From assembly GCA_964586135.1 (NCBI GenBank), contig CAZPGS010000003.1:5780-37887 (forward strand): a stretch of DNA of 32,108 nt, read 5' to 3'. Both the position numbers and the translations under genes were made by a program. This document shows positions 7,255 through 31,921 of the stretch, piece after piece. Source of the stretch: an uncultured Nitrososphaerota archaeon. GTDB taxonomy: Archaea; Thermoproteota; Methanomethylicia; Nezhaarchaeales; WYZ-LMO8. The notes under the pieces were generated by a model that saw nothing but the letters and a program-made list of their open reading frames with translations, searched no databases and was not told the origin of the DNA. Numbering within the stretch: the first letter of the stretch is position 1; every line of letters starts with the position of its first letter.

Positions 7255-7674
7255 CTAAGGCTGATAGCCTTCTAGCTCAAATTTGCCATCGCTTTTCATG
7301 TAGATGACGTTCACGCCGCTCCTTCTCAACCTTCGCCTTAGCTCTCGATCATTTGTGGCGACTATGTAGTCCTCTCTCCTAGAGGCCTCGACTATAGCGT
7401 CGTCGACAGCTCTCTCGCCGTTCTCGACGACCTCAAACTCCTTTTTCTTCACGTACTCTAAGGCGGCACGGGCTATTCGAGCGGCCTTTTGCCTTTCATG
7501 GGAGCTCGCTATTCTCTCGAGCTCTCGAAGCTGTGACTTCAAGATGATCGGCCTAACCTTAGCTTCAAGCAGCTCTTCAACCCTCTCAACGACGTCCACT
7601 GGCCCCTCGAAAGCGGCCATCAAGAAGTTCGTGTCGAAGAGCACTTTAATCGCGATTTTACCTCCGCTCCTCAC
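7255..7674 (-). CDS. PIN-domain protein (Fcf1/Utp24-like)
   Basis: DTNFLM, VDDAIV, VATNDRELRRRL; conserved position downstream of aIF2gamma. Confidence 0.85.
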   Translation of the reverse strand: MRSGGKIAIKVLFDTNFLMAAFEGPVDVVERVEELLEAKVRPIILKSQLRELERIASSHERQKAARIARAALEYVKKKEFEVVENGERAVDDAIVEASRREDYIVATNDRELRRRLRRSGVNVIYMKSDGKFELEGYQP

Positions 7675-8960
7675 CTGATAATCCCGTACCCTATAAGCCT
7701 AAACCTTCCAGATATCTGGCGGCTTATCGCTACTCTAGTCCTCGGCTCCGCGCACACCGGCCTACGTAGCCTCACCGAGACCACGTCTTTAGAGGCCTTA
7801 GCGACAGCCCCCAATGTCGTGGCAGTGCCAACGTTTATCATTAAGACCTCGCCGGTCCTTATGCTCTCGACCTTAACCATGTCCACGGTCCCTACGGCCC
7901 TTTCGAATAACACTACTTCTAAGTCGAGGTCAAAGAGCGTTGGGGGGAGCGTCCCAGGCTTGCCCACGACGCTGCCGGCTAGGGAGTCCGATTTTGTGAG
8001 CGAAGGATCGAGAAGCGTGCCGAAGCCTATCAACCCTCCAGGTCTCGCCTCTTCCACTTCCACGTCGCCCGCCTTCAAGCTTACAACTTGAGTGTACAGC
8101 GGCTCATACTCGACCTTTCCGCCTCCCTTCTCCAACCTAATGCCGGGTCTTATCTCGATCTCATCGCCCGTTCTAGCAACACCCTGAATTATAGAACCCC
8201 CTAAAACCCCGCCCTTCAATTCCTCGGGCGTCGTTCCAGGCTTATTGACGTCGAAGGACCTAGCTATTAATGCTCTCAAAGGCTTCGTCGGGTCTCTCTT
8301 CGGGGTCGGAATGACTTTCTCTATGGTCTCTATCAAGACGTCGAGATTTGCCTTATGGAGAGCCGATATCGGAATTATCGGCGCATCCCTATACATGGTG
8401 TCCTTCAAGAACTCTCTTATTTGACGATAGTTCTCAACGACTTTATCTTTAGGAGCGACTTCTATTTTATTCTGCACCACCACCACGTTCTTGATGCCCA
8501 ATATTTCGAGGGCCTTTAGGTGTTCTCGCGTTTGGGGTTGAGGACATGGAACCGTAGCATCAATTACCAATATGGCTCCGTCGAATAGAGTAGCCCCTGC
8601 GAGCATCGTAGCCATCAGCATGTCACGTTGCACGCCCGTTTACGGGCGTGCAATCTCGTGTCCGGGGCAGTCTACGAATGAGTACTTTCTCAAAAACTCG
8701 AGCCTAGACCCGCAGTACTTGCACGTGGTCCCCGATAGCACGTAAGTTGTGTAGCACCGCGGAGGCGGGCACTTGGGGCACTTTAATACCGCAGTGTCGG
8801 CGTAGCCCAGCCTAAGCGTTATCCCCCTCTTTAACTCTTCAGAGTGCCTCGAAGCCCACACGCCCGAGAGGGCCCACGTCAAGGTAGTCTTACCGTGATC
8901 CACGTGACCCGTCGTGCCTATGTTCAGCTCAGCTTGCCTCTTCATCTGCTCCTCGGCCAC
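7671..8960 (-). CDS. eif2g: Translation initiation factor aIF2 gamma, intron-split: join(8960..8655, 8621..7671), 418 aa after splicing
   Basis: Exon 1 has [22 protein letters not shown], a zinc knuckle and DCPGHE. Exon 2 has [22 protein letters not shown] and RSFDVNKPG. Removing 33 nt restores DCPGHEMLMATML. Confidence 0.95.
8622..8654 (-). other. Putative 33-nt BHB-type mRNA intron in aIF2gamma
   Basis: Minus strand: CACG-AG^A-[TTGCACGCCCG TAAA CGGGCGTGCAA]-CGTG-AC^A. 4-bp central helix CACG/CGTG, 3-nt bulges, perfect 11-bp stem, in-frame TAA in the loop. Outer exon helix is weak. Confidence 0.88.
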
Positions 8961-9388: not shown

Positions 9389-11206
9389 CTATCTGCCAGC
9401 AGCCCTCTTTATCTTGGCAATTTCGTCTATGAGTTCTAGTTCTTCCTTTGAGAGTTGGTCGAGGAACTTCTCCTTCAATATTCTTGCATGTTCTGTTGGC
9501 ACGTCGACGTATAGGTAATCGCCCTCGTCGATGTGCCTGCCGACGATCACGTTCCCCCTGATAGAGATCGCTACGGCCTGTCCCGCCACGGCCTCGCTCA
9601 AGCTCTTTTTCTGCTCTTGTATTTGCATTATCACTCCGAGCCTTCTGCCCTTGGCGCTCATCAACGGGTACCCAGGCCTTAGCCTTCCAGCCAGTATTTC
9701 GACCCCAACTATCGCTGGGTCGCTCCTCCTGAATACGTAGCCCTTTAGAATACGGGCCTTCCCGGGCAAGGTTAGAGAGGACAGCGTCTGCCTACGATCT
9801 TCTTCCATTTTCTTCTTGACCCAGTCCAAGTAGTCCTCCACCAACCTGTAAATGACGTTGTTCCTAAACATTGGTATGCCTCTACTCTCTATCTCCTGCT
9901 CCGCGTCGGGGTTTGCACCGACATTGAACGCCAAGATAACGCCGTGGTAGGGGTCCTTCTCTTTAGTTATCGCGGCTTCGACGACGTCTCTCTTCGATAC
10001 CTTCCCAACGTCGGCCAGCCTCACCGACACGCCCAGCCCCTGTAGCTTCGAAACTAAAGCCTCAAGGGAACCTAGGGTATCGGCTTTAACCACCACTCCT
10101 ACCGCGTCCGTCGTTATCCTGATCTTTGAGAGCTCCTCTGCAACCCTTCTTACTGCCTCCTCGATCTCAGCTTGGCTCCTCGCTGAGAAGAAGGGGCTAC
10201 CAGCCACGGCATCGTCTAGGCCCTGGGCGACTATTCTCACACCAGCAGCCGCGACGACCTCGTCCACGCTCTTGAACTTGTCCTCTGGATCCCTCATCTC
10301 ATCCATGGGCTTGGGCATCAGTATGCTCCTAATTTTGGTCACTATGGGGCCTTTAAGCCCGCCGAGCACTATCGTGTCGTCCTTTCCCAGCACGCCATCG
10401 TAAATTATCACGTCTGCGACGTTGCCTAGGCCTAGAACCTCTCTGCACTCCAGCACCACGCCTTTAGCCGCCGACTCCTCGACGTAGAGCCTCTTTAACA
10501 TGTACCTCTGAGAGAGACCGGCTAAGACAAGCAGGAGGTCAGGTATGCCCTCTCCCGTCTTAGCGCTCGTGGGTATCACGGCCACGGTTCTGGTGAAGTC
10601 CCTTATCCTGTCATACCTGTCGGCTTGAAATCCAAGCTCCTCAAACTTAGCCACGATGTTGTAGATGAGCTCGTCGAGCCTCCTCTGGACCTGAGGTTGT
10701 TGCGACTTTATCGTCTCGACGAACGGCTTAAACTCGTTCTTAACCCACCCGGGTATTTTGTCTATCTTGTTTGCGGCGACGACAAAGGGCGTCTTCCTAG
10801 CTTTTAAGATCTCTAAGCTCTCGTAGGTTATCTCTTCAAAACCTTCGAGGATGTCTATGACCAAGATGGCCACGTCGGCTATTGAGCCGCCTCTCTTCCT
10901 CAAGTTCACGAAGGCCTCGTGCCCTGGGGTGTCTATGACCAAAAAGCCGGGTATCTTAATCTCAACCTTTATGTTCTTGAGTAAGGGACCGCACATCCTC
11001 TCAAGAGCAGACCAAGGCAAGAAGGAAGCTCCAATGTGCTGGGTTTGCCACGTAGCGCCGAGCGGGCGCTACATCATGGCCCCGACTTCTCTAAACATGA
11101 TCGCAGTGCCCCTGATCTTGTCGAGGAGGAGGGTCTTCCCCACGTCTACGTGTCCCAATACACATAGGATGGGCGACCTGATTCTCTTGCCCTCACCGCC
11201 GTCCAC
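9389..11206 (-). CDS. infB: Translation initiation factor aIF5B (IF-2), intron-split: join(11206..11075, 11044..9389), about 595 aa after splicing
   Basis: Exon 1 has [29 protein letters not shown]. Exon 2 has [28 protein letters not shown] and [13 protein letters not shown] start at 11206 follows GGAGGTGA. Confidence 0.95.
11045..11074 (-). other. Putative 30-nt BHB mRNA intron in aIF5B
   Basis: Minus strand: GGG-GCCA-TG^A-[TGTAGCGCC CGCTC GGCGCTACG]-TGGC-AA^A-CCC. Complete BHB with outer helix GGG/CCC, central helix GCCA/TGGC and a 9-bp intron stem; in-frame TAG inside. Confidence 0.92.
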
Positions 11207-30344: not shown

Positions 30345-30631
30345 AGAGCTCGGCGCTTGTGAGCAAAGGGTTGACGCATGTGCTCCTCGGCTAATTGTAT
30401 GCGATTGGACCCCCCACCATCGTAGTAGGGGTCCGCTCACCTCGAAAACTCTTCTCTAAATCCTCTTGATCGTGCGCGAACACGCTCCACAGCCCTCAAT
30501 CCCATTCTCCCGAGCTTACATTAGAGGGTAGCCCTCGAGGAGGGCTTCTGCATGGCCTTAAGTCGACGACTAGGGCTTAAAGTGGCCCTTAGCTCGTGCC
30601 GGCATCGAGGTCCTAGAATGCAAGGAGTTAG

Positions 30632-30742
30632 TGCGGGGGGTGGGATTCGAACCCACGAAGGCCTGCGCCACGGGATTTCCCATCCGGCCTCGAGCAAGAG
30701 AGATCTTAAGTCCCGCCCCTTTGTCCGCTCGGGAACCCCCGC
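30632..30742 (-). tRNA. tRNA-Leu(TAA) with 28-nt intron at position 37/38 (30677-30704)
   Basis: GCGGGGG/CCCCCGC acceptor stem, CGGGA-CTTAAG^intron^A-TCCCG, long variable arm, GTGGG-TTCGAAT-CCCAC. BHB: CTTA/TGGG helix with bulges AGA and AAA. Confidence 0.95.
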
Positions 30743-30831: not shown

Positions 30832-31921
30832 GTGCGGCCTTTGAAGTTCTTCGAGGCTAGGAGCGTGGAATGGAGGGGTGGAGTTGTTAGGCTCATAGAC
30901 CAGAACGCCTTGCCCTGGGAGCTACGCTACGTGGAGTGCAGAAGCCCCGAAGAGGTCGCGAGGGCCGTGAAGGACATGACCGTGAGAGGGGCCCCGGCAA
31001 TAGGAGTCGCTGCAGCCATGGGGATAGCGCTCGCGGCCTACCACTCCAACGCTAGGGACTTAGAAGCGCTTCTGAGGGACGTAGAGAAGGCGGCTCAAGT
31101 GCTGTCCAAGGCTAGGCCGACGGCGAGGAACCTCTTTTGGGCCATTGAGAGGATGACGAGCACCATCAGGAGGGCTCCGAGCCTTGAGGAGGCCAAGAGG
31201 ATCGCCGTGGAGGAGGCCGTCAGGATGGCGGACGAGGACGTGGGGGTAAACAAGAGGATAGGCGAGATAGGCGCCTCCCTGATAGAGGACGGCGACACGA
31301 TACTGACCCACTGCAAACAGCTGGGCTGAGCAACCCGGCTGGCAGATCGCGGGAGCGCTGGCTACCGTAGGGTACGGCACAGCCCTAGGCGTAATTAGGA
31401 GCGCAGTGGCGCAAGGGAAGAGGATAAGGGTCATAGCGACTGAGACGAGGCCGAGGCTACAAGGGGCGAAGCTGACGGTGTACGAGCTCAAGAGGGACGG
31501 GATAGACGTGACGCTCATAACTGACAACATGGTCGGCTACGTCATGAGCCAAGGAATGGTGGACAAGGCCGTCGTGGGGGCCGATAGGGTATTGAGGGAC
31601 GGGCACGTGGTCAACAAGGTAGGGACGCTGACCATAGCCATCGTGGCCAGCAGGTACTCGGTGCCCTTCTACGTCGCGGCGCCCTCTTCTACCTTCGACT
31701 TGAGCTCGAGAGTCGAGGACGTGGTGATAGAGCAGAGGGACCCGAGAGAGGTGCTGGAGGTTAATGAGAGGCCGATAACGATAGACGTGGAGGTCCTCAA
31801 CCCCGCCTTCGACGTAACGCCGCCCGACTTGGTGACCGCGATAATAACGGAGAGGGGCATAATAAGGCCTCCGTACCACGAGAACATACCCAAGACGATG
31901 GCGAGGGCGACAAACGTTTAA
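30832..31921 (+). CDS. mtnA: Methylthioribose-1-phosphate isomerase (eIF2B-related family), intron-split: join(30832..31316, 31348..31921), 352 aa after splicing
   Basis: DQNALP, VRGAPAIG, RPTARNL, TILTHC|NAGALATVGYGTA, ETRPRLQGAKLT, VGADR, NKVGT, NPAFDVTP. Confidence 0.92.
31317..31347 (+). other. Putative 31-nt BHB-type mRNA intron in mtnA
   Basis: CTGC-AA^A-[CAGCTGGG CTGAGCAA CCCGGCTG]-GCAG-AT^C. Central helix CTGC/GCAG, 8-bp stem, TGA in the loop, frameshifting. Removal gives TGC AAC GCG (C-N-A). Confidence 0.88.

Follow-up and report, generated by a model that had tools for sequence, protein, structure and literature searches.

The 32,108-nucleotide stretch of DNA analyzed here, referred to as the window, comes from a hot-spring archaeon and encodes the translation-initiation GTPase aIF2-gamma on the minus strand at 7671-8960. 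The reading frame is interrupted by a 33-nt insert, which lies right behind GAC TGC CCC GGA CAC GAG and ahead of ATG CTG ATG GCT ACG ATG. When the gene is read through with X at the stop codon within the insert, it scores 610.3 bits against NF003077 (cut-off 315) and 597.6 bits against TIGR03680 (cut-off 514.5), passing both curated cut-offs with the G-domain motifs in order. The two coding segments, described here as exon 1 and exon 2, divide these NCBIfam profiles between them: exon 1 matches NF003077 positions 3-96 and TIGR03680 positions 2-92, and exon 2 matches positions 97-411 and 93-407, respectively. Their coordinates are collected in Table 1, together with those of four further interrupted genes discussed below.

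Table 1. Coordinates of the interrupted aIF2-gamma gene and of the other predicted bulge-helix-bulge (BHB) introns of the genome. Positions are those of the window unless a contig of the genome (G000) is named.
Feature	Position	Strand	Remarks
aIF2-gamma exon 1	8655..8960	-	102 codons; GTG start at 8960; DCPGHE (G3/switch II) at its end
Predicted BHB mini-intron of aIF2-gamma, 33 nt	8622..8654	-	Minimum-energy fold; strict BHB scan; conserved in 11 distinct variants
aIF2-gamma exon 2	7671..8621	-	316 codons and stop; opens with MLMATML
Exonic 5' strand (CACG) of the 4-bp central helix H	8657..8660	-	His codon and first base of the Glu codon
aIF5B (infB), predicted 30-nt BHB mini-intron in the G domain	11045-11074	-	NF003078 44/45; TIGR00491 37/38
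MtnA / eIF-2B-related gene, predicted 31-nt BHB mini-intron	31317-31347	+	Phase 2; NF004326 165/166/167
uS5, predicted 30-nt BHB mini-intron	G000:C9:5876-5905 (L043:477-506)	+	NF003125 66/67; perfect 9-bp stem
cbf5, predicted 21-nt BHB intron	G000:C11:3726-3746 (L124)	+	Phase 1; NF003280 66/67/68

The insert is predicted to form a compact structure that extends into the codons preceding it. Its inner stem comprises 11 perfect base pairs (arms 8643-8653 and 8628-8638) closed by a UAAA loop at 8639-8642, the first three bases of which constitute the in-frame TAA. Below this hairpin, CGUG of the insert (8624-8627) pairs with CACG of exon 1 to give the central helix H, and a 3-nt bulge lies on either side, AGA at 8654-8656 and ACA at 8621-8623. 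The insert therefore opens with base 3 of the 5' bulge, continues through the 11-bp hairpin and the 3' strand of H, and closes with bases 1 and 2 of the 3' bulge. The minimum-energy fold of an 81-nt stretch in ViennaRNA is exactly this BHB (-32.8 kcal/mol, z = -3.5), and one of 200 shuffled sequences folds as well. Counting both strands, the 1.03-Mb genome has eight strict BHB motifs whose inner stem is at least 11 bp long and whose loop is at most 9 nt. A 101-nt region around the insert matches itself alone in the genome, where the hairpin is single-copy, which provides no sign of a repeat or mobile element; Rfam returned no match to the insert at E values up to 1, and the sequence 3' of the hairpin contains no U-run of the kind expected of a terminator.

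The archaeal BHB cleavage rule, as given in a passage of Yokobori (2009, PMC2738675), places a cut between the second and third residue of each bulge. Applied here, it takes out exactly 8622-8654, and the predicted exons then abut at consecutive profile positions, 96/97 in NF003077 and 92/93 in TIGR03680. The motif thus exceeds chance expectation, and both predicted cuts fall on the profile junction. The joined frame encodes 418 residues with no further lesion and reads DCPGHE/MLMATML across the junction; the product, DCPGHEMLMATML, equals the uninterrupted sequence in intronless genomes of the same order, and the mature RNA would join GGACACGAG to AUGCUGAUG. An initial annotation of this DNA had described a hairpin insert of this length behind the G3 motif, with an 11-bp stem, a TAA in its loop and a CACG/CGTG helix between AGA and ACA, together with a junction after the GAG codon and a lesion-free 418-residue product. 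That description agrees with the sequence base for base, with the computed fold and with the profile junction, and the joined frame is indeed open throughout; the orthologue alignment that it proposed as a check finds intronless relatives encoding exactly the predicted spliced sequence.

To place the insert among relatives, the TIGR03680 profile was searched against 41 genomes from eight families, comprising the window's genome (G000) and 40 relatives. Ten of these genomes, in four genera, belong to the window's own family (f1). The aIF2-gamma gene is interrupted near profile position 92/93 in all ten, and in none of the 31 genomes of the seven other families, including five genomes of two other families of the same order. 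At the ten f1 loci the insert always lies between GGN CAC GAR and ATG YTN ATG GCN, while its length varies (33, 35, 33, 32, 33, 32, 32, 32, 32 and 31 nt). A further 160 loci from species genomes and metagenomes included 156 uninterrupted genes, one truncated gene and three interrupted genes; the last are all close kin, and one contributes a new 32-nt variant. Besides the ten assembled genomes, two metagenome contigs bear the insert, and contigs of two other hot-spring metagenomes span 8200-8931 with 114 letters differing (approximately 84% alike) and no gaps.

These data bear on the possibility that the interruption reflects a pseudogene, an artefact of assembly, or an in-frame insertion made tolerable by readthrough of its stop codon. 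The last of these is suggested by the window's genome when taken by itself, since its insert keeps the frame and contains one TAA. However, the insert shifts the frame in seven of the ten f1 genomes, which lies beyond rescue by readthrough and excludes a tolerated in-frame insertion. The insert is not an assembly artefact, since it is found in ten separately assembled genomes and in the two metagenome contigs. A pseudogene fits no better: aIF2-gamma is single-copy in G000, where the four other matches have E values of 1e-22 or weaker, and both exons are intact in an end-to-end profile match. Taken together, explanations of this kind are extremely unlikely.

The distinct insert variants, 11 in all, were aligned to assess whether the structure is maintained; the metagenome contigs supplied two close relatives among 80 loci, and the covariation test is accordingly small. 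The proposed structure is paired in 94.9% of cells, compared with 18-48% when the partners are slid by one to three columns. The H pairs form in every variant and are invariant, and three pairs of the inner stem have changed on both sides, two of them in G009 (U-A to C-G and C-G to U-A). Among the 12 flanking codons, all eight freely synonymous third positions vary, whereas variation affects nine of the 22 stem columns (four when G009 is left out) and no column of the four in CGUG. Moreover, the His codon that contributes to H is CAC in all 11 intron-bearing variants, compared with 19 CAT and 10 CAC among 29 intronless orthologues. Because the stem and CGUG columns vary less than synonymous sites and the His codon is always CAC, purifying selection evidently acts on the insert as an RNA element linked with the upstream exon.

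The insert is one of several of its kind in the genome. A strict scan of the 1.03-Mb genome (4-bp helix, 3/3 bulges, inner stem of at least 6 bp, loop of at most 9 nt) yielded 703 motifs. Of these, 26 fuse open frames of at least 60 codons, where six decoy bulge geometries gave 13-20. When a stem of at least 8 bp was required, the count was six, and the decoys gave 2-3. Four of these six are supported by homology, and cbf5, which the strict scan missed because its inner stem is just 4 bp, is a fifth gene. In each of the four genes other than aIF2-gamma, namely aIF5B, the MtnA-like gene, uS5 and cbf5, the cleavage rule gives exact profile continuity (Table 1). The aIF5B intron combines H of GCCA/UGGC, bulges UGA and AAA, a 9-bp inner stem, an in-frame TAG and, as drawn by hand, a 3-bp outer helix (GGG/CCC). 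In the MtnA-like gene, H is CUGC/GCAG, the bulges are AAA and AUC, and the inner stem has 8 bp; the exons match NF004326 positions 10-165 and 167-355, and the split codon, position 166, is the Asn of a conserved ...THC-N-AGALAT... stretch. Similarly, the cbf5 intron splits the Asp codon of ...GGTL-D-PKV....

The start of exon 2 raises the question of whether aIF2-gamma might instead be a split gene, made as a two-piece factor from an N-terminal 102 residues with a short tail and a C-terminal 316 residues beginning at ATG. This ATG opens exon 2 in all 11 variants, and in most of them a stop codon falls within the insert or immediately behind it, both of which fit such an arrangement. However, among the 29 intronless orthologues from related families the junction residues are EML in 17 and ESL in 12, and the ATG codon itself is present in the 17, including all four same-order loci examined (L025, L029-L031). 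The exon 2 ATG is therefore an internal Met codon of ancestral origin and not a new start. A split gene would also break the protein within switch II of the G domain, and leaves unexplained why the spacer conserves a helix with upstream coding bases and why the two 3-nt bulges sit precisely on the codon boundary. The sister genes also speak against it: their exon 2 lacks a start codon or begins mid-codon (ACC in aIF5B, GCU in uS5, phase 2 in the MtnA-like gene, phase 1 in cbf5), making separate translation impossible there. In these four of the five genes, joining at the RNA level alone can restore the product, and we regard a split aIF2-gamma as highly improbable.

The insert leaves a gap in the coding sequence, folds into a stable hairpin and has a stop codon close behind the take-off site. 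These features also recall translational bypass, in which ribosomes would hop the hairpin in the style of phage T4 gene 60. The gene 60 bypass involves matching take-off and landing codons. In four of the 11 variants (G007, G008, G009 and L142) the last codon of exon 1 is indeed identical to the last codon of the insert, but in the other seven the two differ (GAG/GAA versus GAC/GAU). Nor does hopping explain why the motif has BHB geometry or why sister introns occur in different reading phases; there is scarcely any chance that it accounts for this gap.

The remaining candidates of the scans were rejected. Two strict-scan candidates (C6:21108 and C33:4776) fuse adjacent genes on inspection by eye, and those on C18, C28, C82 and C111 fuse low-complexity non-coding frames. 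A relaxed scan (inner stem of at least 3 bp plus a codon-usage filter) gave 3840 frame-fusing motifs, 294 of them with coding-like flanks; these were mostly adjacent-gene junctions and did not discriminate, and a first permissive BHB scan was equally noisy. The five intron sites lie within highly conserved motifs, comprising GTPase switch regions, the pseudouridine synthase Asp motif and the THCNAG stretch, and their bulges are A-rich. This placement may reflect either a detection bias or a preference in insertion or retention.

To catalogue the distribution of these introns, interruptions outside f1 were taken from the profile-search tables of the same 41 genomes. Interrupted cbf5 is found in six of the eight sampled families (f1, in 9/9 genes found, and f2, f3, f4, f7 and f8), with uninterrupted genes in f5 (12) and f6 (2). 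The aIF5B gene is interrupted in five (10/10 in f1, 1/1 in f2, 4/4 in f3, 2/6 in f4, and 8/11 found in f5) and uninterrupted in f6-f8. For uS5 the interruption is limited to two families (10/10 in f1 and 4/4 in f3), and the MtnA-like interruption (9/9 found) is, like that of aIF2-gamma, limited to f1; all other families have uninterrupted genes. The distribution over families is nested. The aIF5B interruption is widespread in the class, and occurs in the single-contig genomes G016 and G019 of another family. In one f4 genome the aIF5B gene (G033:C1:13437-15175, minus strand) is split near profile 383/386, a different site, which could represent another intron or a frameshift.

Overall, we put the probability at roughly 90% that the insert is a genuine BHB intron in the aIF2-gamma mRNA, the cutting and joining of which we infer. 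In the transcript, exonic CACG would pair with CGUG of the insert to form a 4-bp helix flanked by 3-nt bulges upon the 11-bp hairpin. EndA, the tRNA-splicing endonuclease, here of a two-subunit crenarchaeal type, would then cut between the second and third base of each bulge, and RtcB would ligate the exons and leave the 33-nt piece free. The mature mRNA would be translated into a continuous 418-residue aIF2-gamma with switch II intact, while unspliced RNA would give a truncated N-terminal fragment only.

Several observations weigh against this reading. The four sequencing runs that contain the stretch are all recorded as DNA ('DNA?'), so the spliced RNA is a predicted molecule. The compared genomes are kin rather than independent observations. 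Covariation is modest, and the changes on both sides come from few lineages: 15 of 500 shuffles match the both-side count, 65 of 500 the covariation score, and 269 of 500 the paired percentage, the last because most columns do not vary. The outer helix, formed between the exons, is weak, with one A-U pair followed by a G.G mismatch, and the minimum-energy fold places the 3' bulge inside a 2x3 internal loop. These features make the motif 'relaxed', such that its cleavage depends on a broad-specificity enzyme; the outer A-U position is a standard pair in ten of the 11 variants. The last two concern the enzymes in the window's own metagenome-assembled genome (MAG; 85% complete). The only EndA found in it is a non-catalytic, beta-like one (G000:C22:7334-7819, minus strand; L041), and its RtcB (C23, L042:1498-2712, minus strand) lacks 91 residues of the G003 protein in a clean in-frame gap. 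The gap takes in GYDINCGVR and has a similar ...LEDL... string on either side; either a collapse during assembly or a deletion variant may be responsible.

The relatives provide a fuller account of the machinery. In f1, all four genomes with a completeness of at least 93% encode two EndA paralogues, one of which retains the Tyr, His and Lys of the catalytic domain, while the other has Gly for the His. The catalytic-type paralogue aligns without gaps to the solved chain 3p1z_B (E 2.5e-50), through a loop with an aligned lysine; the aligned His is Ala in chain 3ajv_B. We take both chains to be crenarchaeal alpha subunits, and the loop to be the Crenarchaea-specific loop. In support of this, a lysine-bearing EndA loop is described, in an extract of a 2025 paper, as the basis of relaxed specificity (PMC12397907). 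At the level of the family, the lineage is thus predicted to possess a two-subunit crenarchaeal-type EndA that accepts relaxed motifs. Both the weak outer helix and the need for a broad-specificity EndA had been anticipated in the initial annotation, the former borne out at this locus and the latter in the near-complete f1 relatives. Of the five f1 genomes searched for RtcB, the four near-complete ones encode a full-length protein (profile 1-426); the fifth genome is 67% complete. Moreover, ARAGORN identified introns in nine of the 26 tRNA genes found in G000; because these nine need both enzymes, the EndA and RtcB gaps of this genome probably reflect assembly incompleteness. The genome-wide total is just 26 tRNA genes, and this suggests that others, whose introns are non-canonical or multiple, escape detection. 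One of the tRNA genes identified by ARAGORN, a tRNA-Ser(UGA) with a 28-nt intron, lies in the window at 30631-30742 (minus strand), just upstream of the MtnA-like gene.

The closest known system is the cbf5 pre-mRNA BHB intron of Crenarchaeota, which Watanabe in 2002 and Yoshinari in 2006 reportedly described. In the passages available from Yokobori (2009, PMC2738675), this intron is short, has a relaxed BHB and involves a hetero-oligomeric endonuclease, and cbf5 is the sole gene in which splicing of an archaeal coding-sequence mRNA was documented experimentally. In the parts of them available here, a 2020 paper names cbf5 as the only report prior to its own case in a 5' untranslated region (UTR) (PMC7714728), and a 2025 paper cites just the cbf5 work (PMC12397907). 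The aIF2-gamma insert shares with that system a short intron in a protein gene, a relaxed BHB and a cut between second and third residues, and G000 itself has such a cbf5 intron of 21 nt. It differs in its host, a translation-initiation GTPase interrupted in switch II; in its lineage, a Nezhaarchaeota-labelled family of the class Methanomethylicia, the nearest named record being Candidatus Nezhaarchaeota; and in its long, perfect inner hairpin. It is also one of at least five introns in the genome, and is predicted from sequence.

Other processes resemble this one in part. Pre-tRNA and pre-rRNA introns feature the same motif and presumably the same enzymes, whereas here the substrate is a coding sequence and the cut must be base-exact to preserve the reading frame. 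In eukaryotes, HAC1/XBP1 splicing employs the IRE1 nuclease and a tRNA ligase in a regulated stress response. The endonuclease of Haloferax volcanii, for its part, is of a different type. The HVO_1309 mRNA of that organism is, according to an excerpt of Schwarz (2020, PMC7714728), likewise a substrate of the tRNA-splicing endonuclease, but the 5' UTR BHB intron in question lies in an untranslated leader and, unlike that of aIF2-gamma, interrupts no codons. The likeness to HAC1/XBP1, which is mentioned in part of another source (PMC4090602), lies in the excision of a short mRNA intron without a spliceosome, at sites set by RNA structure, with a change in translation; the nuclease proposed here is EndA rather than IRE1. 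In the open-access full-text literature, outside which most subscription journals lie, a search found neither a paper reporting an intron in aIF2-gamma nor one reporting several archaeal BHB introns in mRNAs. The mechanism is already known; new are the lineage, the identity of the host genes and how many of them a genome has.

These data describe an essential initiation factor interrupted in the switch II of its GTPase domain, with at least four further genes following the same rule. A bolder and, in our estimation, rather unlikely proposal is that the lineage actively accumulates BHB mini-introns in core translation mRNAs, with stepwise gain as the nested distribution would suggest, and that their dependence on EndA and RtcB constitutes a checkpoint on translation initiation. 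On this view the hairpins, which are more conserved than synonymous sites, may be more than merely tolerated. If true, both initiation GTPases, a ribosomal protein and Cbf5 would be tied to the capacity for tRNA and rRNA maturation. Archaea would then have a counterpart of HAC1/XBP1 splicing, and the lineage would be a living model of how protein genes gain introns when no spliceosome is present. More broadly, BHB introns in protein genes may be much commoner in uncultured Thermoproteota than believed. Gene callers will list such essential genes as truncated, split or pseudogenes, which affects MAG completeness estimates, marker-gene phylogenies and metabolic reconstructions. The nested distribution of these introns across families meanwhile offers a concrete system for the study of non-spliceosomal intron gain in coding sequence.

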